Shown here in pieces: positions 3,714 to 51,868 of a stretch of 64,000 bases of DNA. The stretch is taken from NCBI RefSeq assembly GCF_003334305.1, contig NZ_QOWS01000002.1. One strand, 5' to 3'. Source of the stretch: Escherichia coli (GTDB taxonomy: Bacteria > Pseudomonadota > Gammaproteobacteria > Enterobacterales > Enterobacteriaceae). Every line of letters starts with the position of its first letter. The stretch's first letter is position 1. The notes beneath the pieces were generated by a model, which did not search any database, was not told the origin of the DNA, and saw nothing but the letters and a program-made list of their open reading frames with translations. The translations under genes were made by a program, and so were the position numbers.

Positions 3714-3862
3714 TCTTTTTGTTCTGTAAGCCGGGTAAGCGCAATGCGCCCGGCAATCCATAAAGAATGTCGCCAGAAATAAACGGGCATACGGCCCGGG
3801 GATCTCTGCGCCCTGACGTTCACAAACTGCATATATCTGATAGACGTGAAACAGGAGTCATA

Positions 3863-19006: not shown

Positions 19007-21270
19007 CCAGGCCAGTAACGTTATCAGAACCCCATTTCAGCCAGCATACCCTGAACAAGTATGCATCGCTGATGGCGCAGGGGAACGGCTATCTTGGGCT
19101 TCGCGCCAGCCATGAAGAAGATTACACGCGCCAGACGCGAGGGATGTATCTGGCGGGGCTGTATCATCGGGCGGGAAAAGGTGAAATCAACGAACTGGTG
19201 AACCTGCCTGATATCTTGGGGATGGAGATTGCCATAAATGGTGAGGTTTTCTCGTTATCCCGCGAAGCCTGGCAGCGTGAACTTGACTTTGCCAGTGGAG
19301 AATTACGCCGTAGCGTTGTCTGGCGTACCAGCAACGGCACAGGTTACACCATCGCCAGCCGTCGCTTTGTTTCGGCAGACCAACTGCCGCTCATTGTGCT
19401 GGAAATCACTATTACGCCACTGGACGCCGACGCGTCAGTGCTGATTTCAACAGGTATCGACGCCACGCAAACCAACCACGGTCGCCAACATCTCGACGAA
19501 ACCCAGGTGCGGGTGTTTGGTCAGCATCTGATGCAGGGGATCTACACCACCCAGGATGGACGCAGTGATGTGGCCATCAGCTGTTGCTGTATGGTGAGCG
19601 GTGATGTGCAGCAATGCTATACCGCCAAAGAGCGCCGTTTGCAGCAACATACCAGTGCGCAGCTTCATGCAGGCGAGACAGTGACGTTGCAAAAACTGGT
19701 GTGGATCGACTGGCGGGATGACAGGCAAGCCGTTTTAGACGAGTGGGGCAGCGCGTCGCTTCGCCAGCTTGAAATGTGCGCGCAGCAGAGTTACGACCAA
19801 CTTCTTGCAGTATCAACAGAAAACTGGCGTCAATGGTGGCAGAAACGTCGTATCACGGTAAATGGCGGCGAAGCGCACGATCAGCAAGCGTTAGATTATG
19901 CGCTTTATCATCTGCGCATCATGACGCCTGCCCACGACGAGCGCAGCAGCATTGCGGCAAAAGGCTTAACCGGCGAAGGCTACAAAGGCCACGTTTTCTG
20001 GGATACAGAAGTATTTTTGTTACCGTTTCATCTGTTTAGCGATCCGACGGTTGCCCGAAGTTTACTGCGTTATCGCTGGCACAACTTGCCAGGCGCGCAG
20101 GAGAAAGCGCGACGCAACGGCTGGCAGGGCGCGCTATTTCCGTGGGAAAGCGCGCGCAGCGGCGAAGAAGAGACGCCGGAATTTGCCGCCATTAACATTC
20201 GCACCGGGCTGCGGCAAAAAGTGGCCTCGGCGCAGGCGGAACATCATCTGGTGGCCGATATCGCCTGGGCGGTTATTCAATACTGGCAGACCACGGGGGA
20301 TGAAAGTTTCATTGCGCATGAAGGCATGGCGCTACTTCTGGAAACTGCAAAGTTCTGGATTAGCCGCGCGGTGAGGGTTAACGACCGTCTGGAAATTCAT
20401 GATGTTATTGGGCCTGACGAATATACCGAACATGTCAATAATAACGCCTTCACCAGCTATATGGCGTATTACAACGTCCAGCAGGCGCTGAGTATTGCCC
20501 GCCAGTTTGGCTGTAGCGACGACGCGTTTATTCATCGCGCCGAAATGTTCCTCAAAGAACTGTGGCTACCAGAAACTCAGCCCGACGGCGTTTTGCCGCA
20601 GGATGATTCGTTTATGGCGAAACCAGCGATTAATCTGGCGAAATACAAAGCGGCGGCGGGGAAGCAAACCATTTTGCTGGATTATTCACGCGCAGAAGTG
20701 AACGAAATGCAGATCCTCAAGCAGGCAGATGTGGTGATGCTCAATTACATGCTGCCGGAGCAGTTCTCAGCGGCATCGTGTCTCGCCAATCTGCAATTTT
20801 ATGAACCGCGTACCATTCACGACTCGTCATTAAGTAAAGCAATCCACGGCATTGTTGCCGCACGTTGTGGCCTGTTGGCGCAGGGATATCACTTCTGGCG
20901 GGAGGGGACTGAAATCGATCTTGGTGCTGATCCGCATAGTTGTGATGATGGTATCCATGCTGCCGCAACTGGCGCTATCTGGCTGGGGGCGATTCAGGGT
21001 TTTGCCGGGGTGAGCGTGCGTGACGGTGAATTGCATCTCAATCCGGCGTTACCTGAGCAGTGGCAACAGTTGTCTTTCCCTCTGTTCTGGCAGGGCTGCG
21101 AATTACAGGTCACGCTCGACGCGCAGCGTATTGCGATTCGAACTTCTGCGCCCGTTTCACTGCGTTTGAACGGTCAGCTTATATCCGTGGCTGAAGAATC
21201 TGTTTTCTGTTTGGGTGATTTTATTTTGCCCTTCAATGGGACCGCTACCACACATCAGGAGGATGAATGA
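19003..21270 (+). CDS. ycjT: GH65-family glycoside phosphorylase (kojibiose phosphorylase)
   Basis: 755-aa ORF; start overlaps the ycjS stop (ATGA). Confidence 0.88.
21236..21251 (+). promoter_or_regulatory. candidate YcjW operator, copy 2, inside the 3' end of ycjT and 15 bp upstream of the ycjU ATG
   Basis: Exact second copy of ATGGGACCGCTACCAC (see 11309-11324). Confidence 0.5.
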
Positions 21271-34009: not shown

Positions 34010-34345
34010 CACTACTTGCTGATACATTAATTTAATTTCTCTCTTAACGTATTCTCAGTTCCTTTCAACGTTTTGGTTATTTTTTATTCTTCGTACAATG
34101 GCGACAGATGCTGATTATGATACCGAAAACTGGTTTGAACGTGCGAAGCCTGAACGTAGTGTTCGGTGTTCTATGTGCTTTACCGCATTTTGGCGTCGAT
34201 TATTTACACTAAATCTGATTTAATATATTGATACATAAAACATTTTATGCTTCCTGTGTCACTTTTTTGATGGAAGTTGTTTGCATTTCTTTAAGGCGAA
34301 ACAAATAATTACGCATCAATTTTAATGTCGGTTAGAGGGAAACTT

Positions 34346-35959
34346 ATGAAGCACTCTGTTTCAGTCACGTGTTGTGCGCTGTTGGTCAGCAGCATTTCTC
34401 TTTCGTATGCTGCAGAAGTTCCGAGCGGCACAGTACTGGCAGAGAAGCAGGAGCTGGTGCGCCACATTAAAGATGAGCCTGCGTCGCTGGATCCCGCTAA
34501 AGCCGTGGGCCTGCCAGAGATTCAGGTCATTCGCGATCTGTTTGAAGGACTGGTGAATCAGAACGAGAAAGGGGAGATTGTCCCCGGCGTTGCGACTCAG
34601 TGGAAAAGTAATGACAACCGTATCTGGACTTTTACCCTGCGCGATAACGCAAAATGGGCGGATGGCACACCGGTAACGGCGCAAGATTTTGTCTACAGCT
34701 GGCAACGTCTGGTGGACCCGAAAACTCTATCGCCATTTGCATGGTTTGCCGCGCTGGCGGGAATCAACAACGCACAGGCGATTATTGATGGTAAAGCTAC
34801 GCCTGACCAGCTTGGCGTCACCGCAGTTGATGCCCATACTTTGAAAATTCAGCTTGATAAACCGTTGCCGTGGTTTGTGAATTTAACCGCTAACTTTGCC
34901 TTCTTCCCGGTGCAAAAAGCCAACGTAGAAAGCGGTAAAGAGTGGACGAAACCCGGAAATCTGATTGGCAATGGCGCTTATGTTCTTAAAGAGCGCGTAG
35001 TCAATGAAAAACTGGTCGTGGTACCGAATACCCATTATTGGGATAACGCCAAAACGGTACTGCAAAAAGTGACCTTCCTGCCAATTAATCAGGAATCCGC
35101 AGCCACTAAGCGTTACCTCGCGGGGGATATTGATATCACCGAATCCTTCCCGAAAAATATGTATCAGAAGCTGTTGAAGGATATTCCGGGGCAGGTTTAT
35201 ACGCCGCCGCAGCTCGGGACCTATTATTATGCGTTTAACACGCAAAAAGGGCCGACGGCAGATCAGCGCGTTCGTCTGGCATTAAGTATGACGATAGATC
35301 GCCGCCTGATGACCGAAAAAGTATTAGGGACGGGCGAAAAGCCAGCGTGGCATTTTACACCAGATGTTACCGCCGGATTTACGCCGGAACCTTCGCCGTT
35401 TGAACAAATGAGTCAGGAAGAACTGAATGCGCAGGCAAAAACTTTGTTGAGCGCAGCTGGTTATGGTCCGCAAAAACCGCTGAAGCTGACGCTTTTGTAT
35501 AACACTTCAGAAAACCATCAAAAAATTGCGATTGCTGTAGCATCGATGTGGAAAAAGAACCTTGGCGTAGATGTTAAATTGCAAAATCAGGAATGGAAAA
35601 CCTATATCGATAGCCGTAACACCGGCAATTTTGATGTTATCCGCGCCTCATGGGTGGGGGATTATAATGAACCCTCCACTTTCCTGACATTATTAACGTC
35701 AACGCATTCAGGAAATATTTCACGCTTTAACAATCCGGCATATGACAAAGTTCTGGCCCAGGCATCGACGGAAAATACCGTTAAAGCGCGTAATGCCGAT
35801 TACAACGCGGCAGAAAAAATCCTCATGGAGCAAGCACCGATTGCACCAATTTATCAATATACCAATGGACGATTAATCAAACCGTGGCTGAAAGGTTATC
35901 CCATTAATAACCCTGAAGATGTGGCGTACAGTCGGACTATGTATATTGTGAAGCATTGA
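34346..35959 (+). CDS. mppA: periplasmic murein tripeptide-binding protein (OppA paralogue)
   Basis: Track ORF 34325..35959 trimmed to ATG 34346 (MKHSVSVTCCALLVSS...) giving 537 aa. Confidence 0.92.
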   Translation: MKHSVSVTCCALLVSSISLSYAAEVPSGTVLAEKQELVRHIKDEPASLDPAKAVGLPEIQVIRDLFEGLVNQNEKGEIVPGVATQWKSNDNRIWTFTLRDNAKWADGTPVTAQDFVYSWQRLVDPKTLSPFAWFAALAGINNAQAIIDGKATPDQLGVTAVDAHTLKIQLDKPLPWFVNLTANFAFFPVQKANVESGKEWTKPGNLIGNGAYVLKERVVNEKLVVVPNTHYWDNAKTVLQKVTFLPINQESAATKRYLAGDIDITESFPKNMYQKLLKDIPGQVYTPPQLGTYYYAFNTQKGPTADQRVRLALSMTIDRRLMTEKVLGTGEKPAWHFTPDVTAGFTPEPSPFEQMSQEELNAQAKTLLSAAGYGPQKPLKLTLLYNTSENHQKIAIAVASMWKKNLGVDVKLQNQEWKTYIDSRNTGNFDVIRASWVGDYNEPSTFLTLLTSTHSGNISRFNNPAYDKVLAQASTENTVKARNADYNAAEKILMEQAPIAPIYQYTNGRLIKPWLKGYPINNPEDVAYSRTMYIVKH

Positions 35960-36009
35960 TGTGATGGGAACTGGCGTTACCCTTGTGGATAACGCCAGTG
36001 ATGTCTGAT

Positions 36010-37041
36010 TTAGCGACCCTGTTCCGGCGGTGTAATGTTATCCATATACAGCGTCTGGCTGGGGAAGGCAAAGTCCGCGCCGTGTGACTGTACAATATCG
36101 ATAATCTTCAAATAAACGTCTTGCTGTGCAGCAAGCCATTCAGCCCATACCGTGGTTTTGGTAAAGCAATAAACCATAATATTCAATGACGAGTCGGCAA
36201 ACTGGTTGAAATAAACCAGTAAGGTTTGTCGCTGGTCGATGGCCGGGTGATTTTTCAGCATCTCACGTACGGCTTCGACAATAACGCCCACTTTTGCCGC
36301 ATCCTCATAACGTAAACCAATGGTCGTGGTAATGCGGCGGTTGGTCATTCGTCCTGGGTTTTCTACGCTGATCGACGAAAACAGCGAGTTCGGTACGTAC
36401 AATGGACGATTATCAAAGGTCGTAATTTTGGTAATTCGCCAGCCAATTTCCGCTACTGTACCTTCGATATTTCTGTCCGGTGAACGGATCCAGTCGCCAA
36501 TACTGAAAGGACGGTCGAAATAGAGCATGATCCCGGAAAAGAAATTACTCAGAATATCTTTACCGGCCATACCGACAGCCAGACCACCAATACCACCAAA
36601 GGTCAACAAGCCAGAAAGGCTCATGCCGAAATGTTCGCCATAAAGCAGAACAAGCACCACAATAATGGTGATTTTGATAATGCGCGACATAATCCGCGCA
36701 CTGGTGATATCGCGACCTTTTTTAATCTGCTGTTTTTCAAACTGATTAATCAGCAAAAATAGCTTAATCGTCAGAATAACCGCAATCAGGGACGTACAGA
36801 TAAAATCGATAACGCCTGGGGTGATAAATTTGAGTTTATAGTTTTCTATAACATAATTAATAATGCTACCAACAGCACTGATAATTATGGTGTAGATTAA
36901 AAATTGCACCGCATGGAATAAAAAACCTTTTCTTTTACGATTTCCGCGGCGAAACCAAAAGCTCATCAGAATCAATGCTGCGCAGCTACCGAAAATAATG
37001 ACCAGATTAAGCGCATTATTTGTAAACAGTTCAGCGATCAT
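36010..37041 (-). CDS. ynaI: MscS-family mechanosensitive channel
   Basis: 343-aa ORF with N-terminal transmembrane helices and MscS-like C-terminal domain. Confidence 0.9.
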
Positions 37042-37284
37042 TGTTTTATCAGGCTCCTCCAGATAATTGTCGTCATGCCGGAAACCCCTGGCGGGGCTAT
37101 TTTACCGCGACAATTCATTCAGATCATCAATAGTCAGGGAAGGAAGTAGCAATATTAGCTAACTAATCAATGCGTTGATTGTAAATCCAGCTAAGAGGTG
37201 AGGTTTTCAGAGCAGACAACGGTGAAATGTCATGGTATTGTTACGTTTAGGTAACAAGAAATTTGTCTGCACAAGGATTACATC

Positions 37285-37542
37285 ATGATTATGGCGAAAC
37301 TGAAGTCAGCGAAAGGGAAGAAATTTCTCTTTGGTTTGTTGGCGGTTTTCATTATTGCGGCGTCGGTTGTGACTCGCGCGACTATCGGCGGCGTTATAGA
37401 ACAGTACAATATTCCGCTGTCTGAGTGGACGACATCAATGTATGTGATTCAGTCATCGATGATTTTTGTTTATAGCCTGGTCTTTACTGTGTTGCTGGCA
37501 ATCCCGTTGGGAATTTATTTCCTTGGCGGCGAAGAGCAGTAA
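37285..37542 (+). CDS. ynaJ: small inner-membrane protein (DUF2534)
   Basis: 85-aa ORF with two hydrophobic segments. Confidence 0.85.
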   Translation: MIMAKLKSAKGKKFLFGLLAVFIIAASVVTRATIGGVIEQYNIPLSEWTTSMYVIQSSMIFVYSLVFTVLLAIPLGIYFLGGEEQ

Positions 37543-37551
37543 GTAAAAAAT

Positions 37552-37571
37552 AGGCCCGATAACTCGGGCCT
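37552..37571. terminator. bidirectional hairpin terminator between convergent ynaJ and uspE
   Basis: AGGCCCGATAACTCGGGCCT stem-loop flanked by an A-run upstream and a T-rich tract downstream. Confidence 0.6.
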
Positions 37572-37591
37572 TGTCAGTTATTGAAGAGTCG

Positions 37592-38542
37592 TTAATCGTC
37601 TTCTTCGTCATCCAGTTCAACGGGTGTCTGATACTGGTCAGGTTTAATGACCAACAGATCGCAGCGAAGATGATCAATCACCTGTTCCGCCGTGTTGCCG
37701 AGGAATGCTGCTGAAATACCGGTGCGTCCTACCGTGCCCAGAACCACAATCCCCGCCTGTAAGTGCTCCGCCAAATCAGGAATCACCTCTTCTGGCAGAC
37801 CTTTTTCTACGTGCGTCATGTTTTCATTAATGCCGAATTTCTGCCGCAGAGCTTTCATTGCCAGCAAATGTTGCCCACGAATGGCATCGTTATAAACGCT
37901 CGGATCAAATTCCGGCAGTTCAATCGCGATATTAATTGGCGTTACCGGATAAGCGCCAACCAGATGAACTTCGGTATGGTTGACTTGTTCTGCCAGTTCG
38001 ATCGTCTCTTTGACCAGTTTTTCATTGAGCGCATTATGATACGGCTCTTCACTGGCGAGATTCACCGCCACCAGCGCCTTGCCTCCTTCCGGCCACGGCT
38101 GGTCTTTCACCATCCACACCGGGCTTGGGCATTTGCGTAACAGATGCCAGTCCGTTGGCGTAAAAATCACCGCTTCCAGACGGTCATGTTGGTGCGCCAT
38201 TTTTAGCACCAAATCGTGCCCGCCGCTGATCACTTCCTGAATGATGGCTTCGAAAGGACGGTTATGCCAGACCACTTTAATTTCAATGGGAACGCCAGCA
38301 TTGAGATAATATTTTGCCTGCTCGTGGATCCAGGCTGTACGCTGGCTGATGACGCCCTGACGCATAGCCGTACGTTCGTCCGGGGAGAGCAGGGTGGTCA
38401 TTTCGTATGAGAAGTCATAGATCGGCAAAAAGGCTTTAATTTTGCCACCAATCCGTTGATGTAAATAAACAGCTCGCCGCAATGCTGGTTGGTCGTCCTG
38501 GTTAGGATCGATAACAACGAGCATGTTCTGATACATAGCCAT
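37592..38542 (-). CDS. uspE: universal stress protein E (tandem Usp domains)
   Basis: Track ORF 37592..38569 trimmed to the ATG at 38540-38542 ([17 protein letters not shown]...) giving 316 aa. Confidence 0.92.
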
Positions 38543-38693
38543 ACAGGGTCTCCTTACAACAACTGTCAACGCAGTTTGTAATTAAAAGATTAACCCATAT
38601 CTGGTGAATGAAACAGTGATGAACCTTCTGCCAGATCAATAAATCAGAAAAATTTAATGATATGACAGAAGGATAGTGAGTTATGCGGAAAAA

Positions 38694-39446
38694 TCAGGCA
38701 ACATTACGCGTATGACCAGCAAGCTGGGCCAGCGCATCGTTATTTTCGATGGTGATGTATTTACCTTTGACTGCCAGCATACCGCTTTTCTGGAAGCGAC
38801 CTAGCAGACGGCTGATGGTTTCTACCGTCAGGCCCAGATAGTTACCGATATCGCCACGAGTCATCGTCAGGCGGAATTCACGAGGGGAGAAGCCGCGTTG
38901 GGCAAAACGACGGGACAGGTTGTAGATGAATGCAGCCAGACGTTCCTCGGCATTTTTCTTCGACAACAGCAGGATCATGTCCTGATCGCCTTTGATTTCA
39001 CCGCTCATCAGACGCATCATCTGCTGACGCAGATTCGGCATTTTACCGGACAAATCGTCCAGCGTTTCGAACGGGATTTCACATACCATCGAGGTTTCCA
39101 GCGCCTGAGCGAAGCTCGGGTGATGGCCGCTGCCGATGGCGTCAAATCCCACCAGGTCGCCTGCTAAATGGAAACCAGTGATTTGCTCGTCGCCTTGCTC
39201 AGTGATGGTATAACTTTTAATCGTACCGGAGCGGATGGCATAAAGCGATTTAAGTTCATCACCAGCCTTAAACAGCGTCTGGCCTTTCTGAATAGGCTTC
39301 TTCCGCTCAATGATATTATCAAGCTGATCAAGCTCATGTTCGTTGAGTGTGAACGGGATGCAAAGCTGGCTGATGCTGCAATCCTGGCAATGGATAGCAC
39401 AACCGCCAGACTGAATGCGCCGTATAATTCGCTTTTCCGGGATCAT
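38694..39446 (-). CDS. fnr: anaerobic global regulator FNR (CRP/FNR family, Fe-S cluster)
   Basis: Track ORF 38694..39503 trimmed to the ATG at 39444-39446 ([31 protein letters not shown]...) giving 250 aa; N-terminal Cys cluster and C-terminal HTH. Confidence 0.96.
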
Positions 39447-39465
39447 AGGTCTGCTCAAGCCGTAA

Positions 39466-39479
39466 TTGATATTTGTCAA
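39466..39479. promoter_or_regulatory. FNR box in the fnr promoter (autoregulation)
   Basis: TTGATATTTGTCAA, a near-consensus TTGAT-N4-ATCAA site 20 bp upstream of the fnr start codon. Confidence 0.6.
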
Positions 39480-39640
39480 TTTTAACATCTTTTTAGGGAG
39501 CAAGTAAGTCTAAGCAAACCTTAACAGCAGAGAATTCCGATATTAGATGTAAATATATGTCTATCTATTTGAAAACCCTTAAGTTGTTAAGGGTAACTTT
39601 ACATAAAAGTGTGAACAAGCTGGCACAAATTGTTTAATGT

Positions 39641-40156
39641 TTACAGCAAAAGATAACCTTCGTGGCGCAATAACCACTCTTTTCGCTGAACTCCGCCTGC
39701 ATATCCGGTCATGGTGCCGTTTCGGCCAATAACCCGATGGCAAGGTACGACGATGCTGATGGGATTCGATCCGTTTGCCGCACCAACGGCACGCGCCGCG
39801 CCAGGGCGGCCCAATTGTTCAGCCAGTTGGCCGTAATGCATTACCTGCCCGCAGGGGATAGTGCGTAGAGTTTTCCAGACTTCGCGCTGAAATGGCGTCC
39901 CCCCTGTGGCAGTGGGAAGCGTATCAATAATGCTAAGATTACCGGCAAAATAATCACGAAGCTTGTCGCTTAAACCGCCTGGGTTGGTGGCAGAAATGCG
40001 CTCATAGCCTTCTTTGCGATAATGGATGTCCAGCAGCTGCACCATGCGTTCGCTGTACTCTTCCCATTCAACCGCCCGCAGGCGAAATTGCTCATCGCAA
40101 ATCACCCACAGTGGACCCAGTGGCGTGGCAATTTTTTCTTCAAGTAATCTCAGCAT
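39641..40156 (-). CDS. ogt: O6-alkylguanine-DNA alkyltransferase
   Basis: 171-aa ORF containing the active-site PCHRV motif. Confidence 0.93.
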
Positions 40157-40166
40157 CCGTTCTCTC

Positions 40167-41693
40167 TTAAGACAAACGTGGGTAAATCCCCGGACCTATC
40201 GGCAGACCAACAAGATACCACGCCAGCAACATCAGCAGCCATACCACCAAAAAGATAAGCGGATAGGGCAAGACTAACGAATAGTAAGTACCCAGTTTTG
40301 CGTCTGGTTTGTAGCGTTGCAGGAATCCAAGAAACAGTGGAACAAAAGGAGATACCGGCGCTAAAGGCAATACGGATGAGTCGGCAATACGAAAGAGGAT
40401 TTGCGCAAATGCCGGGTGAAAGCCAAGTAGCATAAACATTGGTACGAAAATGGGGGCCAGAATCGACCAGATTGCGGAACCGCTGGCAATAAACATGCAT
40501 AAGAAAGAGGAAAGCAACGCCAGACCGACAAACGCCGGGATGCCGCTAAGCCCTGAACTTTCAAGTATATCGGTCAGCCCCACGGCGATGAATTTCCCCA
40601 TGTTGCTCCAGTTAAACATGGCGACAAACTGGGCGAGGGGAAAAACCATCACGATAAATCCCGCCATCTCTTTCATCGGTTCAATCATTAAATGCGGTAA
40701 ATCCGCCTGACGTCGAATTGTGCGGGTAGCGATGCCATAAGCCAGCGAAACCACAAAGAAAAAAAGAATGATTAGTGGCACGATACCTTTAATAAAGGGT
40801 GATGGCATCACGGTGTGATTAATCGGATCGCGCAATATCCCGTTTTCCGGGATCACCATCAGCGCGATCGCAGCAATAAAAAGTAGCGATACGACACCTG
40901 CTATGCGTAAACCAAAACGCTGACTTTCGGTCAATGTCTGCAGTTTCTCATCGCTGTTTCCCTGCCATTGACCTAACCGTGGCTCGATGATTTTGTCGGT
41001 TATCAGGCCGCCAACAATCGTCAGTACGACTACGGAGCTGGCCATAAAATACCAGTTATCAATTACACTGACGTGCATTTGCGGATTGAACGCAGCCGCC
41101 GCTTCCGTGCTGATCCCCGACAGCAACACGTCGGTTGTGACAATCAGTAAATTAGCCGTGAAGCCGCAACCTACGCCTGCAATGGCGGCCAGTAAACCTG
41201 CAACTGGATGCCTGCCCACCGCCAGAAAAATCAGCGCACCCATCGGTGGCATGATCACTAACGCCGCATCGGAAGAAATGTGGCTGAAAAAAGCAATAAA
41301 CAGCACCATATAACTGGCGTAGCGGGCATTAACATGCGATGCCATTTTAACCATTAGCGCTGGCAGTAAGCCGACGCGCTCCGCTAGGCCGGCACCTAAA
41401 ACCAGCGCCAGGATCGCTCCAAGTGGAGCAAAACCGCTAAAGTTTTTAATCACATTGGGTAAAAACCAGTGTAATCCTTCCACACTGAGCAGGTTTTTCA
41501 CCACCACCGGCGTACCATCGGTCGGGTTTTTCGCACTGACGCCAAAGGCTGACAAAATTGCCGTCGTCACCATGAGTACGATTATCAAATAGATAAAGAG
41601 CAAAAAAGGATGGGGAACCTTGTTACCAATTCTTTCGACCCAGCCATAGAGCTTCCCGGATTGGGAGGACGACGGTATGGATGACATACTCAT
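40167..41693 (-). CDS. abgT: p-aminobenzoyl-glutamate transporter (AbgT family)
   Basis: Track ORF 40167..41699 trimmed by 2 codons to [11 protein letters not shown]... (508 aa); polytopic membrane protein. Confidence 0.9.
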
Positions 41694-41729
41694 GGGCATT
41701 CCTCGGTTGTTGTGTTTGCGTTGTTGTTG

Positions 41730-43175
41730 TTATTTTAAAGGTGACGGTGTCACGTTTTTCGGGATAGGGCAGTGATACGGTTGCGTGTCCGTAACTTGCT
41801 GATGCTCTTGTTGGCATTCTTGCAATAGCCCTGAATCAATGAAGAGATTGACTGTGGTTGCTGCCATAGTTTTCGCCGCCAGCAGCATTCCTTTATGAGC
41901 AATCGATGTTCGCCCCTGGCTAACCAGTTGCCACGTATGTAGCGGTGTACCGACGGCAAAACAGGGGCTGAAACACTGGGCAACAGGCAGTTTCCAACTG
42001 ACGTCGCCGACATCAGTCGATGCCGCAAGCACGTTATCGGTGGCGGCATATGGAGCGACCTCATTCGCCAGTACCGTTTCACGATGACGTAGTGCAAAAA
42101 CCTTGCCGTTTTCGCCACCGGTTGCGGCGATATTATTCAGACTGTTTTGCCGATCGTTGGGGGTGAGCGTAGCCTGAATTTGTTTCGCAAAAGCCAGTTC
42201 TTCGGAGTTCCATTCCGGGGTACCAAAATGGGATAGGGCATGGTACATGGCATTTTCTAAGGTGCGATTCGGGAGATAACTGGAACAGGCTTTGTCGAAG
42301 CGGCATTCAACCGTGGTTTCGGTCATCAATGCCGCACCTTCGGCGATTTTGGCGACCCGATCATAAATATGCTGCACGTCGGTCATTTCGGGGGCGCGGA
42401 TAAGATAAAGCACTTCTGCCTGCGCCTGGACCACGTTGGGCGAGATCCCGCCGCTATTTGTGATGGCATAGTGTACGCGCGCTTTTTCAATAATATGTTC
42501 GTTGAGGAAGTTGGTGCCAGTGGTCATCAACGTTACGGCATCAAGGGCGCTGCGTCCCAAATGAGGGGAATTCGCGGCATGTGCTGCGATCCCTTTAAAG
42601 CACCATGATGCCTGAATGTTTGCCAGCGTGCGGGTATTGAACATGCCGGCAAAGGCTTCCGGGTGCCAGGTGAGTGCCGCATCCACATCATCAAATACCC
42701 CCTCGCGGACCATGAACGTTTTACCCGAGCCGCCTTCTTCGCCAGGACAACCATAAAAGCGCACTGTGCCGCCTTGCCCATATTGTTCCAGCCATTTCTT
42801 GACGGCTATTGCAGCGGCAAAGGCGGCGGTTCCCAGCAAATTGTGTCCGCAACCGTGACCATTTTCACCGGGCGTCGCGGATGTAGGTTGCGCGCAACCA
42901 GCTTGCTGACTTAAACCTGCCAGGGCGTCATATTCTCCCAGCAGGGCGATAACCGGTTTGCCTTGACCAAACGAAGCAATAAATGCATTTGGGATATTGC
43001 CTACGTTGCGGGTAACGGTGAAGCTTGCAGATTCCAGCGCCGAAGCCAGATGCTCCGCTGACCAGAACTCTTCAAAACGTGTTTCTGGATGATCCCAGAT
43101 TTGATCGGCAATATCGGTATAACGTTGGCGATCGGCTTCAATCGCATCGTCGATAAAACGATAGATTTCCTGCAT
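41730..43175 (-). CDS. abgB: p-aminobenzoyl-glutamate hydrolase subunit B (M20 peptidase family)
   Basis: 481-aa ORF with M20 metallopeptidase features. Confidence 0.9.
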   Translation of the reverse strand: MQEIYRFIDDAIEADRQRYTDIADQIWDHPETRFEEFWSAEHLASALESASFTVTRNVGNIPNAFIASFGQGKPVIALLGEYDALAGLSQQAGCAQPTSATPGENGHGCGHNLLGTAAFAAAIAVKKWLEQYGQGGTVRFYGCPGEEGGSGKTFMVREGVFDDVDAALTWHPEAFAGMFNTRTLANIQASWCFKGIAAHAANSPHLGRSALDAVTLMTTGTNFLNEHIIEKARVHYAITNSGGISPNVVQAQAEVLYLIRAPEMTDVQHIYDRVAKIAEGAALMTETTVECRFDKACSSYLPNRTLENAMYHALSHFGTPEWNSEELAFAKQIQATLTPNDRQNSLNNIAATGGENGKVFALRHRETVLANEVAPYAATDNVLAASTDVGDVSWKLPVAQCFSPCFAVGTPLHTWQLVSQGRTSIAHKGMLLAAKTMAATTVNLFIDSGLLQECQQEHQQVTDTQPYHCPIPKNVTPSPLK

Positions 43176-44485
43176 CAGATACCTCGCGTCCAGGGAAAAT
43201 TGAGCGCGGTGCGCGCCAGCGTTTCGACGGCAATAGCGAGAACCTGCTCGTCAAAATCGAATTTTTCGTTGTGATGACCTGCCGCCAGCTGTGTGCCAAA
43301 CACCACGTAGGAGGCTTGCCCTTGATGTTGCTGCACGCGGGCCATCATTAATGTGGCATCTTCGGAACCCGCAGGCGCTTCAACACGTTCAATGGCCTGA
43401 TTGACCCCCGCGACCTGAGCCGCCTGACTTTGCAACCATGCGACCCATTGCGGCGAAGGAGAACTGGCGGTAGCTGCACCCATCAGACGAGTTTCAACGC
43501 CGACACCATACATGGTTGCTGCGCCCTGAATCGCTTGTTGTGCACGGTCAAAAACATATTGATTAATGACGTCGCTGGCCCCGCGTGTTTCCACTTTCAG
43601 CAACGCCGAGGCAGGAACAACGTTACGACCGCTTCCTGCCTGCATAACGCCCACGTTTACTCTGGAAGCTCCTTCGCTGTGCGGGGCGATTGCATGCAGT
43701 GCAAGAGTGGCTTGTGCTGCCGCCAACAAGGCATTGTGACCGTCTTCTGGTTTTGCGCCTGCGTGAGCGGCGGTACCGGTGAAGTGCGCGTCAAATTTGG
43801 TGGTTGCCATAAAATTATCACTGCCGCACACCACGGTGCCCGCAGGTACGCCAGTGCCAATGTGCACGGCAGTAAAATAATCAACATCATCTACGACACC
43901 TGCATCGACCATCGCCCGCGCGCCACGCGTACCTTCCTCTGCAGGCTGAAAAATCAGTTTGATGACGCCATGTAGTCCGGACTCGAATTGTTTAAGGGTA
44001 TGCGCCAGCCCAAGCCCAATGGCGGTATGTCCATCATGACCACAGGCATGCATCATTCCGGCGTTACATGACGCAAAACCGTCGCGGTAGGGGCGATGGC
44101 TGACATCCTGCTCTTCACTGAGATCCAGCGCGTCCATATCGACACGGAAAGCCATCACCGGACCGGGGCGACCGGTATCCAGGGTGGCGACGATACCAGT
44201 GAAACCACCTTCAAAAACCGCAATCCATTGTGCTAGCGCACCCTGTTGACGAGCGCGCTCGAATTCGCGTTGTAGAGTGAGTTCATCAGGTAGTCCCATC
44301 CGGCTACTTTCATTAACTACTTCGCGGCCCAGCGCCAGTGAATAGCCGAGCTGCTGCAATTCTTCCGCAACAAGGGTGGCAGTGCGGAATTCCACCCAGC
44401 CAGACTCTGCATAGTGATGAAAATCACGTCGCCAGTGCGATAATTTTGGGGCAAGCGAATTAACAAATTGATTCAAAGACTCCAT
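43175..44485 (-). CDS. abgA: p-aminobenzoyl-glutamate hydrolase subunit A (M20 peptidase family)
   Basis: Track ORF 43175..44500 trimmed to the ATG at 44483-44485 (MESLNQFVNSLAPK...) giving 436 aa; stop overlaps the abgB start. Confidence 0.9.
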   Translation of the reverse strand: MESLNQFVNSLAPKLSHWRRDFHHYAESGWVEFRTATLVAEELQQLGYSLALGREVVNESSRMGLPDELTLQREFERARQQGALAQWIAVFEGGFTGIVATLDTGRPGPVMAFRVDMDALDLSEEQDVSHRPYRDGFASCNAGMMHACGHDGHTAIGLGLAHTLKQFESGLHGVIKLIFQPAEEGTRGARAMVDAGVVDDVDYFTAVHIGTGVPAGTVVCGSDNFMATTKFDAHFTGTAAHAGAKPEDGHNALLAAAQATLALHAIAPHSEGASRVNVGVMQAGSGRNVVPASALLKVETRGASDVINQYVFDRAQQAIQGAATMYGVGVETRLMGAATASSPSPQWVAWLQSQAAQVAGVNQAIERVEAPAGSEDATLMMARVQQHQGQASYVVFGTQLAAGHHNEKFDFDEQVLAIAVETLARTALNFPWTRGI

Positions 44486-44660
44486 AACCTTTCCCGTCAT
44501 CAGTAAAAAGTGTGACCCGGTTCACGTAGCGATAGTTTTTACTTATCACTAACTGATTTTTCACAGTTTTAACCGTTCATAAATTACCCTGACACAATCA
44601 TCTGCATTAAAGTAGATGCCAGTTTCTTTGGTCTGATAAATAACGGTTATCGGTGGCGTC

Positions 44661-45569
44661 ATGACTTTTCAGGTAAAAATTCATCAAATTCGTGCTTTTG
44701 TTGAAGTGGCTCGTCAGGGCAGCATTCGCGGAGCGAGCCGAATGTTGAATATGTCGCAACCGGCACTGAGTAAATCTATTCAGGAGCTGGAAGAAGGATT
44801 AGCGGCGCAACTCTTTTTTCGCCGTAGTAAAGGCGTGACGTTAACTGATGCCGGTGAAAGTTTTTATCAGCACGCCAGTCTTATTCTTGAAGAGCTGCGC
44901 GCAGCGCAAGAGGAAATTCGCCAACGACAAGGGCAACTGGCAGGGCAGATTAATATCGGCATGGGGGCCAGTATTTCCCGCAGTCTGATGCCAGCTGTCA
45001 TATCTCGTTTTCATCAGCAGCATCCGCAGGTAAAAGTACGCATTATGGAAGGGCAACTGGTGTCGATGATTAATGAATTGCGTCAGGGAGAATTGGATTT
45101 CACCATCAATACCTATTATCAGGGACCGTACGACCACGAATTTACTTTTGAGAAATTACTGGAAAAGCAATTCGCGATCTTTTGCCGCCCGGGACACCCC
45201 GCCATTGGTGCCCGTTCGATCAAACAGTTACTGGATTACAGCTGGACAATGCCGACGCCACACGGCAGTTACTACAAACAGTTGAGTGAATTGCTTGACG
45301 ATCAGGCGCAAACGCCACAGGTCGGTGTAGTCTGCGAGACGTTCTCAGCCTGTATCAGTCTGGTGGCAAAAAGCGATTTTCTCAGCATACTGCCTGAAGA
45401 AATGGGCTGCGATCCCTTGCACGGACAGGGGCTGGTGATGTTGCCGGTTAGCGAAATTTTACCGAAAGCGGCCTATTATTTGATTCAGCGGCGTGATAGT
45501 CGCCAGACACCACTGACCGCGTCATTAATCACGCAATTCCGGCGAGAATGCGGCTATCTGCAAAGTTAA
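44661..45569 (+). CDS. abgR: LysR-family regulator of the abg operon
   Basis: 302-aa ORF divergent from abgA with LysR-type HTH (GASRMLNMSQPALSKSIQ). Confidence 0.9.
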   Translation: MTFQVKIHQIRAFVEVARQGSIRGASRMLNMSQPALSKSIQELEEGLAAQLFFRRSKGVTLTDAGESFYQHASLILEELRAAQEEIRQRQGQLAGQINIGMGASISRSLMPAVISRFHQQHPQVKVRIMEGQLVSMINELRQGELDFTINTYYQGPYDHEFTFEKLLEKQFAIFCRPGHPAIGARSIKQLLDYSWTMPTPHGSYYKQLSELLDDQAQTPQVGVVCETFSACISLVAKSDFLSILPEEMGCDPLHGQGLVMLPVSEILPKAAYYLIQRRDSRQTPLTASLITQFRRECGYLQS

Positions 45570-45570
45570 A

Positions 45571-45671
45571 ACTGCATAAAAAAATAGAGTCTGTCGACAT
45601 CCGCCAGACTCTACAGTACACACAGCAGTGCATCCGCGTCTTAAGTCCGGCATTGTCTCCTCTGCGCCGGT
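45571..45671 (-). ncRNA. mcaS: Hfq-binding small RNA McaS (IsrA)
   Basis: Reverse strand reads ACCGGCGCAGAGGAGACAAUGCCGGACUUAAGACGCGGAUGCACUGCUGUGUGUACUGUAGAGUCUGGCGGAUGUCGACAGACUCUAUUUUUUUAUGCAGUU, matching the McaS sequence as I remember it, ending in a hairpin plus U7 terminator. Ends are approximate (a few nt). Confidence 0.8.
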
Positions 45672-45898
45672 GACTGTGTTATAACGGTTTTAACCTTTAG
45701 TTGCCAATTTTCTTCAGTGACAGATTTCACGAAAATATAAGTTACATTATTAATATCGTGAATGAATAATCATGCATAAGCATTTTGCTTAAAATATCGG
45801 CAATATTTGGAACTTATTACTGGAATTTTGGGTAATACGTTGTTGGACCGACCCGGTCTGGTTATCATATCGCGCTCTTAATTGCGGGAGGATGTAAC

Positions 45899-46462
45899 AT
45901 GAACCTTGACGACAAATCGCTGTTTCTTGACGCCATGGAAGATGTCCAGCCGCTGAAACGTGCTACCGATGTCCACTGGCATCCAACGCGTAACCAACGT
46001 GCGCCGCAGCGTATCGACACGCTGCAGCTTGATAATTTCCTCACCACCGGATTTCTCGACATCATCCCACTAAGTCAGCCGCTGGAGTTTCGGCGGGAAG
46101 GGTTGCAACATGGGGTGCTGGATAAGCTGCGCAGTGGTAAATATCCGCAACAGGCGAGCCTGAATCTTTTGCGCCAGCCGGTGGAAGAGTGCCGCAAAAT
46201 GATGTTCAGTTTCATTCAACAAGCCATGGCTGATGGTTTGCGTAACGTGCTGATTATTCATGGCAAAGGACGGGATGATAAATCGCATGCCAATATTGTC
46301 CGCAGCTATGTGGCGCGCTGGCTGACCGAATTTGATGATGTTCAGGCATATTGCACCGCGCTACCGCATCATGGCGGCAGCGGGGCGTGTTACGTCGCAC
46401 TACGTAAAACGGCGCAGGCGAAGCAAGAAAACTGGGAGCGCCACGCTAAGCGCAGTCGTTGA
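45899..46462 (+). CDS. smrA: Smr-domain DNA endonuclease
   Basis: 187-aa ORF with C-terminal Smr domain (LIIHGKGR). Confidence 0.88.
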   Translation: MNLDDKSLFLDAMEDVQPLKRATDVHWHPTRNQRAPQRIDTLQLDNFLTTGFLDIIPLSQPLEFRREGLQHGVLDKLRSGKYPQQASLNLLRQPVEECRKMMFSFIQQAMADGLRNVLIIHGKGRDDKSHANIVRSYVARWLTEFDDVQAYCTALPHHGGSGACYVALRKTAQAKQENWERHAKRSR

Positions 46463-46482
46463 TCTCGAGACGCATCCGCGGC

Positions 46483-47715
46483 TTATGCCGCCAGCACGCG
46501 GTTGCGACCATCATTTTTCGCCCGATACAAAGCATCATCAACGCGTTTAAACAGTTCATCGATGCTTTCATTTCCTTCGTGATGCGCCACACCAATGCTG
46601 ACGGTAAAGCGTGGTAAGCCCGAAATACTCACTTTTGCCACGCTTACGCGGATAGTTTCAGCCAGCGAAAGCGCGGTATCCAGTGGGGTTCTTGGTAGCA
46701 ATAAGACAAACTCTTCGCCTCCCCAACGAAACACCAAATCGCCTTTGCGAGCGCAACTTTCGAGGGTGCGGGCGAGGGCGCATAACACCTCATCACCTTT
46801 AGAATGCCCATAGAGATCGTTAATGTGTTTAAAACGATCGGTGTCGATGAGCAACAAGCTGTAATCCTGAGCGATGGCGAGATGCTGCATTTGGCCTGGT
46901 TCCGTAATGTGATAAAACTGTCGCCGATTCAGTAATCCGGTCATCGCGTCATGGTGAGCAGCATGTTCCAGCTGCTCCTCCAGCCGTTTTTGCTCAGTAA
47001 TATCATGCACAATACATAACATGAGCTTGTCGCCATAAATTTCAATCGGTCCGGCATAGGTCTGCACATGACGAGTAGATCCATCCGCCAGTTTATGAAC
47101 AAAATTCAAAGGTTTATGACCGCCGGGTAAATGCGAAATTTCATGCATGATAGGCATGACGCGACGCCCGAGCATATTTATTTCCCAGGTATGTTTCTGG
47201 CACATCGTTTCATGGTTATAACCATAGAAATTGAGCGCGGCGAGGTTAGCATCGACGATTTGTCCATCTCGTGACGGGTCAATCAACAACATTGGTGCAG
47301 AGTTAGTCAGAAAAAAGCGCGCATAAAAACCTTGTTTTTTGCGCTGATAATTTGCCGAGCGACTGGCTTTTAACCCCAGCGTTGCCGGCGCTTCGATACC
47401 TTCGAAAATAATCACCGGTTCTGTTTCTGTCAGCTCTCGCAAAACAAGCCGACAGCTTAATGCTGTTTCCTCTTCTTTACGCTGAACAGTGAGGATTTCG
47501 ATAATATCGTGTTGGTTTTGCAGATCGGAGAGGTATTTCGGCAGTTCTTTTTGTGAGGAGACGGAATAGGGACCGGTTCGTAGCTGACTAAACGTGAGGT
47601 CTTGCATCAACAGTCGCGCCGCGCTATTGGCATAAATTAACTGTTCCTCAAAGGGCGAAACGATCCAGACAGGACTGGTGAGTAAGTCCAGGGTATTGAA
47701 GTTGTGCGTAATCAT
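46483..47715 (-). CDS. dgcM: diguanylate cyclase (PAS-PAS-GGDEF)
   Basis: Track ORF 46483..47775 trimmed to the ATG at 47713-47715 (MITHNFNTLDLL...) giving 410 aa; GGEEF active-site motif present. Confidence 0.9.
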   Translation of the reverse strand: MITHNFNTLDLLTSPVWIVSPFEEQLIYANSAARLLMQDLTFSQLRTGPYSVSSQKELPKYLSDLQNQHDIIEILTVQRKEEETALSCRLVLRELTETEPVIIFEGIEAPATLGLKASRSANYQRKKQGFYARFFLTNSAPMLLIDPSRDGQIVDANLAALNFYGYNHETMCQKHTWEINMLGRRVMPIMHEISHLPGGHKPLNFVHKLADGSTRHVQTYAGPIEIYGDKLMLCIVHDITEQKRLEEQLEHAAHHDAMTGLLNRRQFYHITEPGQMQHLAIAQDYSLLLIDTDRFKHINDLYGHSKGDEVLCALARTLESCARKGDLVFRWGGEEFVLLLPRTPLDTALSLAETIRVSVAKVSISGLPRFTVSIGVAHHEGNESIDELFKRVDDALYRAKNDGRNRVLAA

Positions 47716-47948
47716 TGAGATCCCATTATTTTTATCAATTTTTGTTGCTATCCGATCGCAAAAAAGCCACGTCATATGATCAGATAATTCTGATAATGAT
47801 AGACGCTATTTAACACTTCACACGGTTTGTATACGGAAAAGCATTTTGCTTTTTGTATTCAATTTAGACAGAATTTTATTAATCATTTCAGGGTAATGGG
47901 GTGATGAGATGTTGCGTAACAGGGCCAGAAGGCTAGACTACAAAATAA

Positions 47949-48953
<1,005 letters not shown>

Positions 48954-48999
48954 CAAAAGCAATTTTTCCGGCTGTCTGTATACAAAAACGCCGCAAAGT

Positions 49000-49013
49000 T
49001 TGAGCGAAGTCAA
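49000..49013. promoter_or_regulatory. FNR box of the fnrS promoter
   Basis: TTGAGCGAAGTCAA centred about 42 bp upstream of the FnrS 5' end, the class II activation spacing. Confidence 0.7.
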
Positions 49014-49048
49014 TAAACTCTCTACCCATTCAGGGCAATATCTCCATT

Positions 49049-49170
49049 GCAGGTGAATGCAACGTCAAGCGATGGGCGTTGCGCTCCATATTGTCTTACT
49101 TCCTTTTTTGAATTACTGCATAGCATAATTGATTCGTACGACGCCGACTTTGATGAGTCGGCTTTTTTTT
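49049..49170 (+). ncRNA. fnrS: FNR-activated small RNA FnrS
   Basis: GCAGGUGAAUGCAACGUCAAGCGAUGGGCGUUGCGCUCC...GACGCCGACUUUGAUGAGUCGGCUUUUUUUU matches FnrS as I remember it, ending in a hairpin plus U8 terminator; track ORF 49047..49265 over it is judged non-coding. Confidence 0.85.
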
Positions 49171-49227
49171 GCCTGTTATTTATCAGCGTCTACCCTTTAA
49201 GAGTCCACCCAATGACCGGAGGGAAAT

Positions 49228-49401
49228 ATGACGACACTTATTTATTTGCAAATTCCTGTCCCTGAACCGATTCCTGGCGATCCTGTTCCAGTGCCCGATC
49301 CGATCCCTCGCCCGCAACCCATGCCTGACCCACCACCCGATGAAGAACCGATTAAATTGTCGCATCGTGAGCGTAGATCTGCGAGGATACGCGCCTGCTA
49401 A
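49228..49401 (+). CDS. unlisted 57-codon proline-rich small ORF immediately upstream of dbpA
   Basis: GGAGGG Shine-Dalgarno at 49218-49223, ATG 49228, stop TAA 49399-49401; encodes MTTLIYLQIPVPEPIPGDPVPVPDPIPRPQPMPDPPPDEEPIKLSHRERRSARIRAC. Below the 60-aa cutoff of the ORF track. Coding status not proven. Confidence 0.45.
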   Translation: MTTLIYLQIPVPEPIPGDPVPVPDPIPRPQPMPDPPPDEEPIKLSHRERRSARIRAC

Positions 49402-49430
49402 CTTTGCGTCGATGACCACGAGAATAGATT

Positions 49431-50804
49431 GTGACCGCTTTTTCTACCCTGAATGTTTTGCCTCCCGCCCAACTCACGAACCTTAATGAGTTGGGTTATT
49501 TAACCATGACGCCGGTGCAGGCCGCCGCGCTTCCGGCGATCCTTGCCGGAAAAGATGTTCGCGTGCAGGCGAAAACCGGCAGCGGCAAAACGGCGGCTTT
49601 TGGCCTCGGCTTGTTACAGCAAATTGATGCGTCGCTATTTCAAACCCAGGCTTTAGTGCTGTGTCCTACGCGTGAACTGGCGGATCAGGTGGCAGGTGAA
49701 TTGCGTCGGCTGGCGCGTTTTCTGCCAAATACCAAAATTTTGACGTTGTGCGGTGGTCAACCGTTCGGTATGCAGCGTGATTCGTTGCAACATGCGCCGC
49801 ATATTATCGTGGCAACGCCGGGTCGTTTGCTGGATCACTTGCAAAAAGGCACGGTATCACTGGATGCGCTGAATACTTTGGTGATGGATGAGGCCGACCG
49901 CATGCTGGATATGGGATTTAGCGATGCCATTGATGATGTCATCCGTTTTGCGCCTGCATCTCGACAGACGCTTCTGTTTTCGGCAACCTGGCCGGAAGCC
50001 ATCGCCGCAATCAGCGGACGAGTGCAACGCGATCCTTTGGCGATTGAAATTGACTCAACAGATGCTTTGCCACCCATTGAACAACAATTTTATGAGACAT
50101 CCAGCAAAGGCAAAATTCCTCTGTTGCAACGGTTATTAAGCTTGCATCAGCCATCCTCTTGCGTGGTGTTTTGCAATACCAAAAAAGATTGCCAGGCTGT
50201 CTGCGACGCGCTGAATGAAGTAGGGCAAAGTGCATTGTCGTTACACGGCGATCTGGAGCAACGCGATCGCGATCAGACTCTGGTACGTTTTGCTAACGGT
50301 AGCGCCCGTGTACTGGTTGCTACTGATGTTGCTGCGCGTGGTCTGGATATTAAATCGCTTGAGCTGGTGGTGAACTTTGAGCTGGCGTGGGACCCTGAAG
50401 TTCATGTACATCGCATCGGTCGTACAGCTCGTGCAGGAAATAGCGGTCTGGCGATCAGTTTCTGTGCTCCGGAAGAAGCACAGCGGGCCAATATCATTTC
50501 TGACATGTTGCAGATAAAACTTAACTGGCAAACGCCGCCAGCTAATAGTTCCATTTTGCCGCTGGAAGCAGAAATGGCAACGTTGTGTATCGATGGCGGG
50601 AAAAAAGCCAAAATGCGCCCGGGTGATGTATTAGGTGCGCTGACAGGAGACATCGGGCTTGATGGCGTAGATATTGGCAAAATCGCCGTGCATCCGGCGC
50701 ATGTCTATGTCGCGGTCCGTCAGGCTGTTGCTCATAAAGCATGGAAACAGTTACAGGGCGGGAAGATTAAAGGAAAAACGTGCCGGGTGCGGTTATTAAA
50801 ATAA
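49431..50804 (+). CDS. dbpA: ATP-dependent RNA helicase DbpA (DEAD-box, 23S rRNA-specific)
   Basis: 457-aa ORF with GTG start; motifs AKTGSGKT, DEAD and SAT present, plus C-terminal RNA-binding domain. Confidence 0.95.
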   Translation: MTAFSTLNVLPPAQLTNLNELGYLTMTPVQAAALPAILAGKDVRVQAKTGSGKTAAFGLGLLQQIDASLFQTQALVLCPTRELADQVAGELRRLARFLPNTKILTLCGGQPFGMQRDSLQHAPHIIVATPGRLLDHLQKGTVSLDALNTLVMDEADRMLDMGFSDAIDDVIRFAPASRQTLLFSATWPEAIAAISGRVQRDPLAIEIDSTDALPPIEQQFYETSSKGKIPLLQRLLSLHQPSSCVVFCNTKKDCQAVCDALNEVGQSALSLHGDLEQRDRDQTLVRFANGSARVLVATDVAARGLDIKSLELVVNFELAWDPEVHVHRIGRTARAGNSGLAISFCAPEEAQRANIISDMLQIKLNWQTPPANSSILPLEAEMATLCIDGGKKAKMRPGDVLGALTGDIGLDGVDIGKIAVHPAHVYVAVRQAVAHKAWKQLQGGKIKGKTCRVRLLK

Positions 50805-50840
50805 TGAAATGTTGAATTGCCGGGTGCAAGAGTAAACATC

Positions 50841-50926
50841 TTATGCGGGATTGCCGGATGCGACGCTGGCCGCGTCTTATGCGGCCTCCATAAGAGTAGC
50901 CCGATACGCTTGCGCATCGGGCGCTA
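50841..50926. repeat. REP-type extragenic palindromes between convergent dbpA and ttcA
   Basis: TTGCCGGATGCGACGCTGGCCGCGTCTTATGCGGCCTCC plus a second dyad CCCGAT...ATCGGG. Confidence 0.5.
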
Positions 50927-50932
50927 TCCTGG

Positions 50933-51868
50933 TTATTTCACTTCAACCACATTCAGCCGTAACTCATCCAACTGATTTTCATCTTCTTCTGGCTGCCAGC
51001 CCGCCGGTTGTAGTGGGATCTCTTCGCGATCAAACGCCAGATCACCCCCGTTAACCACTTCAGAACCGTGGGTAATGCCTTTGAAATCGAACAGGTTGGT
51101 ATCGCACAGATGCGACGGCACCACATTCTGCATCGCGCTGAACATCGTCTCGATACGCCCTGGATAACGTTTATCCCAGTCACGCAACATGTCAGCAATC
51201 ACCTGACGTTGCAGGTTAGGCTGTGAACCGCACAGGTTGCACGGAATAATCGGGAACGCTTTTGCATCGGCAAATCGCTGAATATCTTTCTCGCGGCAGT
51301 AGGCCAGCGGACGAATAACGATATGTTTGCCATCATCGCTCATCAGTTTCGGAGGCATACCTTTCATCTTGCCGCCGTAGAACATATTTAAGAACAACGT
51401 TTGCAGGATATCGTCACGATGGTGACCCAACGCGATCTTCGTCGCCCCCAGTTCCGTTGCGGTACGATAAAGGATACCGCGACGAAGGCGAGAACACAGT
51501 GAGCAAGTGGTTTTGCCCTCTGGAATCTTCTCTTTCACGATACCGTAAGTATTCTCTTCAACAATCTTGTACTCAACGCCCAGCTTTTCAAGATACTCGG
51601 GCAGAACGTGTTCCGGGAAGCCCGGTTGCTTTTGATCGAGGTTAACAGCCACCAGCGAAAAATTGATTGGCGCGCTTTGCTGCAAATTGCGCAGAATCTC
51701 CAGCATGGTATAGCTGTCTTTACCCCCGGAGAGGCAAACCATGATGCGATCGCCTTCTTCAATCATATTGAAGTCAGCAATGGCTTCGCCCACGTTACGA
51801 CGCAGACGTTTTTGTAATTTGTTCAGGTTGTATTGTTCTTTCTTACTAATTTCTTGATTTTGCGACAT
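50933..51868 (-). CDS. ttcA: tRNA 2-thiocytidine(32) synthetase (PP-loop ATPase)
   Basis: 311-aa ORF with PP-loop SGGKDS and Cys motifs; N-terminus here is [18 protein letters not shown]. Confidence 0.92.

Follow-up and report, generated by a model that had tools for sequence, protein, structure and literature searches.

The uninterrupted ynaI/ynaJ intergenic region of a non-K-12 Escherichia coli corresponds to the empty target site of the K-12 element IS5F

Introduction

In Escherichia coli K-12 the divergent genes ynaI (b1330) and ynaJ (b1332) are separated by a copy of IS5. The annotation of MG1655 (NC_000913.3) describes it as "insertion sequence:IS5F", an element of 1,195 bp at 1396044-1397238 that carries insH4 (b1331, + strand). 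The ynaI/ynaJ locus belongs to the 11 IS5 loci of BW25113 reported in a 2024 study, in which the insertion sites are given as CTAA and CTAG and an IS5-deletion mutant of this strain was constructed (PMC11677980).

This copy has consequences for the neighbouring genes. In some K-12 stocks a second IS5 lies beside ogt, and recombination between it and "the known IS5 element b1331 to the right of ynaI" removes the segment ynaJ-uspE-fnr (Herring & Palsson 2007, PMC2072959). An IS5 upstream of fnr is also, judging by its title, the subject of Sawers 2005 (cited in PMC3149613).

Here we compare with this K-12 arrangement the ynaI/ynaJ region of a 64-kb stretch of E. coli DNA, referred to below as the window. 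The window has the locus, the flanks and the CTAA target of IS5F/insH4, but neither the 1,195-bp element, nor its 16-bp terminal repeats, nor insH, and it contains one copy of CTAA fewer.

Results and discussion

The ynaI/ynaJ spacer contains no IS5 sequence

The gene ynaI (36010-37041, - strand) encodes a low-conductance mechanosensitive channel of the MscS family (343 aa), and ynaJ (37285-37542, + strand) a small membrane protein with a DUF2534 domain (85 aa). Both are complete open reading frames whose products are identical to those of b1330 and b1332 and whose lengths are those of the MG1655 annotation; the corresponding genes of strain A7 bear the same names, in the case of ynaI given by PGAP. 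On one side ynaI is followed by mppA (34325-35959), while uspE and fnr lie beyond ynaJ. The two start codons, i.e. the ATG at 37041 (- strand) and the ATG at 37285, delimit a divergent intergenic region of exactly 243 bp (37042-37284; 41.6% GC), which is uninterrupted and represents the wild-type allele.

The original prediction, made from the sequence of the window, held that this spacer has no transposase ORF and no terminal inverted repeats, and that MG1655 has an IS5 copy at this position. Both statements are correct and the coordinates are exact. The longest ORFs of the spacer are of 30-31 aa, and an ORF for the InsH transposase (326 aa, in an element of ~1.2 kb) was not found in it. Elements of the IS5 family are recognised by 16-bp terminal inverted repeats of the form GGAAGGTGCGAA(C/T)AAG. 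Both 16-bp ends were found in IS5F of MG1655, whereas the terminal repeat GGAAGGTGCGAAYAAG gave no match in the whole 64-kb window with up to three mismatches allowed. The inverted repeats present in 36900-37400 are short pairs of the size expected by chance, and none of them flanks an insert. When the window was searched with IS5F by blastn and with InsH4 by tblastn, only chance-level matches were returned (best E-values of 0.064 and 0.039, respectively). A spacer of 243 bp is in any case too short for an IS of 1,195 bp, so that the absence of an IS from it is trivially true; the information comes from the comparison with K-12.

The window retains a single copy of the IS5F target

At this position MG1655 does not display an uninterrupted spacer, which would have contradicted the prediction, but IS5F between collinear flanks. 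Positions 3760-37162 of the window align to 1362640-1396043 of MG1655 and positions 37159-51861 to 1397239-1411941, i.e. to the two sides of the element. The two blastn blocks overlap at exactly 37159-37162, the sequence of which is CTAA; together with the MG1655 junctions this overlap defines the unoccupied IS5 target. In MG1655 the left junction reads ...CATTAGCTAA / GGAAGGTGCGAACAAG... and the right junction ...CTTATTCGCACCTTCC / CTAACTAATC..., and the 4 bp duplicated around the element are CTAA. The insertion point and the target duplication can thus be read directly from the aligned sequences, and the window has exactly one copy of the duplicated CTAA, as an empty allele should.

Removing in silico IS5F together with one CTAA from MG1655 leaves 243 bp, of which 242 are identical to the spacer of the window. 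A target duplication of 4 bp is the sole length that restores 243 bp, and a single mismatch is then left, at 37153 (position 112 of the spacer): a T in the window and a C in MG1655. This C is shared by MG1655 and 42 matches restricted to the flanks, among the matches listed in the junction search described below, including O157:H7 and ST131 genomes; beyond this base nothing notable separates the spacer of the window from the uninterrupted spacers of natural isolates. The form YTAR recurs at three more sites of the spacer (37155, 37191 and 37247).

Comparison of the whole window with MG1655

By local megablast against MG1655 1,355,000-1,454,999 the whole window is collinear with 1,358,756-1,447,141. 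This collinearity, directly observed, extends over four blocks of 98.4-99.1% identity, which contain 860 substitutions and four single-base indels across the 64 kb. The three boundaries between blocks are the only large differences: at ~3760, at the IS5F site (37159-37162) and at the Rac site (51819-51861). At the first of them MG1655 has 122 bp more (1362518-1362639) in the spacer between puuR and puuC, missing from the window at ~3760-3762; this extra segment resembles intergenic repeats of the ERIC/IRU type, to which it may belong.

The original prediction had associated the intact spacer with a missing Rac prophage and an intact ycjV, and both are found. The 23,060-bp Rac prophage of MG1655 (1411899-1434958) is absent and ttcA is directly followed by uspF. 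The flanks of the prophage join at a single unoccupied attachment core (attB) of 43 bp at the 3' end of ttcA (51819-51861), delimited by the overlap of the blastn blocks: it aligns to both edges of Rac, the left copy ending at 1411941 and the right copy starting at 1434959. As for ycjV (21940-23022, + strand), it is an intact ORF for an ABC transporter ATP-binding protein of 360 aa, also intact in strain A7 as a CDS of 1,083 nt. In MG1655 the G found at 22894 of the window is missing, and this 1-nt deletion results in a frameshift and in the pseudogene pair ycjV'/ymjB. In summary of the K-12 features, IS5F, Rac at ttcA, the ycjV frameshift and a near-100% identity to MG1655 are all absent from the window.

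The more general statement that the background is free of several K-12 lesions thus stands for IS5F, Rac and ycjV, but it does not extend to the whole region. A dehydratase remnant (~31844-31981; ymjC/ymjD region), located between mpaA and ycjY, is common to the window and K-12, with no indel between them there. The annotation of strain A7 labels it as a partial ("incomplete") NAD-dependent dehydratase, and a second remnant at ~34107-34199, which K-12 also has, as a partial QueH. Not every decayed gene of the region is therefore specific to K-12.

The window is shared with natural isolates

A 25-kb segment of the window (27000-51999) has full-length matches, at a displayed identity of 100.0% (46,134-46,167 bits), in six natural isolates: A7 (orangutan faeces), TUM1887, DETEC-E601 (sink), A28 (echidna), H15 and NCTC9088. 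As these sources are very different, the segment may represent a clone of wide distribution or a haplotype that has been conserved. In the PGAP annotation of A7 (NZ_CP028767.1) ynaI is directly beside ynaJ with nothing annotated between them, an intact 1,083-nt gene for an ABC ATPase occupies the position of ycjV, and ttcA is followed by uspF. An uninterrupted spacer is also found in other natural isolates (B7A, HS, O157:H7 and ST131).

These matches bear on two artificial origins of the empty site. Strains of the MDS type exist, i.e. "clean genome" derivatives of K-12 engineered to be free of IS and prophages, and such a strain, from which IS5F and Rac had been deliberately deleted, would lack both elements as the window does. 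But the density of substitutions relative to MG1655 (860 over 64 kb, 98.4-99.1% identity) refutes this origin, ycjV is intact in the window and frameshifted in K-12, and a stretch of 25 kb matches at 100.0% natural isolates whose sources include an orangutan, an echidna and a sink. We consider the probability of an engineered K-12 as negligible.

The second concerns the assembly. IS copies are classic break points of short-read assemblies, and a real copy that was collapsed or skipped would leave a falsely clean spacer. However, a skipped IS normally ends the contig and does not produce a seamless empty site, whereas the join observed here is perfect to the base, with exactly one CTAA fewer than in K-12. 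The same spacer is moreover present in thousands of independently finished genomes, the top two matches being identical to the window over the 643 bp of the query used below. An artefact of this kind has hardly any chance of being the explanation. The 100.0% match to A7 and to the other isolates, combined with the annotation of A7, rules out both the engineered K-12 and the assembly collapse.

The empty site is the normal state of the species

A query of 643 bp centred on the spacer has matches in 5,423 of the 5,426 complete E. coli genomes. The spacer is uninterrupted, in a single place and at 98-100% identity, in 5,056 of the 5,426 (~93%). The occupied site was counted with a 44-bp query spanning the left IS5F junction, which can be matched only in genomes possessing that junction: 357 genomes have the K-12 type of junction at a coverage of at least 80%. 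These frequencies are direct counts. A second junction search gave 584 genomes at a coverage of at least 80%; this count was inflated by other IS5 copies lying beside similar flanks and was discarded.

An evenly spaced sample of 58 of the 357 genomes was listed. With the exception of EC21Z-048 they are K-12 laboratory strains or genomes of K-12 size. Among the matches listed the junction is carried by MG1655, W3110, BW25113, DH1, DH5alpha (NEB 5-alpha), DH10B (NEB 10-beta), C600, MC4100, MC1061 and HMS174. They also include a genome of the size of J53 (J53 itself being listed separately) and other K-12-sized genomes labelled with other sources. PJ-T13, an unusually large genome with the junction, is of K-12 type: it shows no mismatch to MG1655 over 40 kb. 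Genomes matching the junction query by the flank only have an empty site; this is the case of NEBExpress, a strain of the B lineage, and of the O157:H7 and ST131 genomes listed.

EC21Z-048 (NZ_CP101269.1; human, Zhejiang) is not a K-12 strain, and yet it has an IS5 between ynaI and ynaJ (20023-21217 of the NZ_CP101269.1 locus examined), inserted at the same base and in the same orientation as in K-12 and with the same CTAA duplication. Of its 1,195 positions, 5 are not those of IS5F, and the flanks differ from MG1655 by 0.8-2% on both sides of it. Its ycjV is intact, a Rac-like prophage is present at ttcA, and full-length SDR and hydrolase genes stand at the site of the dehydratase remnant. 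Its variant junction was found in this genome only among the 5,426. The insertion may result from common descent with the natural ancestor of K-12, or this target may have been hit more than once. Given this one non-K-12 carrier, the IS5-occupied allele is not strictly exclusive to K-12. The occupied site is essentially, and not absolutely, a K-12 marker, and the empty site is the normal state.

Gain of IS5 in K-12 or loss from the lineage of the window

A second CTAA (37163-37166) directly adjoins the target, so that the window contains the tandem pair CTAACTAA at 37159-37166. This pair resembles a retained target duplication, and would fit a lineage in which an IS5 was once present and was then precisely excised, the empty site being that of a revertant. 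But the same tandem pair sits on the ynaJ (right) side of IS5F in MG1655, and therefore it predates the insertion in K-12. The excision must also be set against the uninterrupted spacers, at 98-100% identity, of 93% of the complete genomes, O157:H7, ST131, B-lineage and HS genomes included. With an empty site in 93% of the genomes and the same tandem pair in MG1655, the most parsimonious history is that the K-12 lineage gained the element once, and a precise excision appears very improbable. We infer that the empty state is ancestral and not the product of an excision.

The reading that we retain, with little doubt, is that 37042-37284 is the native and never interrupted divergent intergenic region (promoter and 5'-UTR) of ynaI and ynaJ in a natural non-K-12 E. 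coli. On this reading a copy of IS5 (IS5F/insH4) transposed, within the lineage of K-12, into the CTAA equivalent to 37159-37162 of the window. This transposition duplicated the 4 bp and brought the distance between ynaI and ynaJ to its present value, 1,199 bp longer, and the window retains the ancestral empty site. The spacer is thus the wild-type allele of a well-documented insertion polymorphism of K-12; it is already known and represents no new element, gene or mechanism. Its value lies in strain typing: the window comes from a natural non-K-12 E. coli devoid of IS5F and of Rac and with an intact ycjV.

The fnr region in the absence of flanking IS5 copies

The genes ynaI, ynaJ, uspE, fnr and ogt, i.e. 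the neighbourhood in which the IS5-mediated deletion occurs in K-12 stocks, are all present in the window and collinear with MG1655. In contrast to these stocks, the window has no IS5 beside ynaI and none between fnr and ogt, and the alignment with MG1655 has no indel from 37159 to 51861. As no IS5 is present in these 64 kb, a deletion of ynaJ-uspE-fnr by recombination between two IS5 copies would be unavailable to the strain. The fnr region lacks here the flanking copies that destabilise it in some K-12 stocks, and is expected to be more stable.

Sequence features of the intact spacer

The spacer must carry the promoters and the 5' leaders of both ynaI and ynaJ. A scan of 36900-37650 with the sigma-70 consensus gave no promoter-like match, for 1.5 expected by chance, and therefore the two promoters are not placeable from sequence. 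A permissive Rfam scan of 36000-38700 detected no RNA family in the spacer; its only match, to a miRNA (E = 0.13), lies outside the spacer and is attributable to chance.

Two perfect palindromes are present in the spacer, AATCAA-N4-TTGATT (37165-37180) and TTGTTAC-N6-GTAACAA (37238-37257). The number of palindromes observed, three, is above the mean of shuffled sequences (0.69), but it is reached by 8% of the shuffles and is not significant. It is conceivable, though rather unlikely, that the intact spacer functions as a single bidirectional control region, for instance through these two palindromes, and that IS5F splits it in K-12, 121 bp upstream of ynaI. All that is known of ynaI and ynaJ regulation in K-12 would then be a poor guide to that in wild E. 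coli.

At 37076-37093 (+ strand), upstream of the start of ynaI by 36-53 nt, a GC-rich hairpin precedes a T-run. On the + strand this structure resembles a terminator; on the - strand it forms part of the ynaI leader. Elsewhere in the window three small RNAs, McaS (45576-45671, - strand), FnrS (49049-49166, + strand) and MicC (53977-54097, + strand), are the only Rfam matches that reach gathering scores; their order relative to the neighbouring genes is the same as in MG1655.
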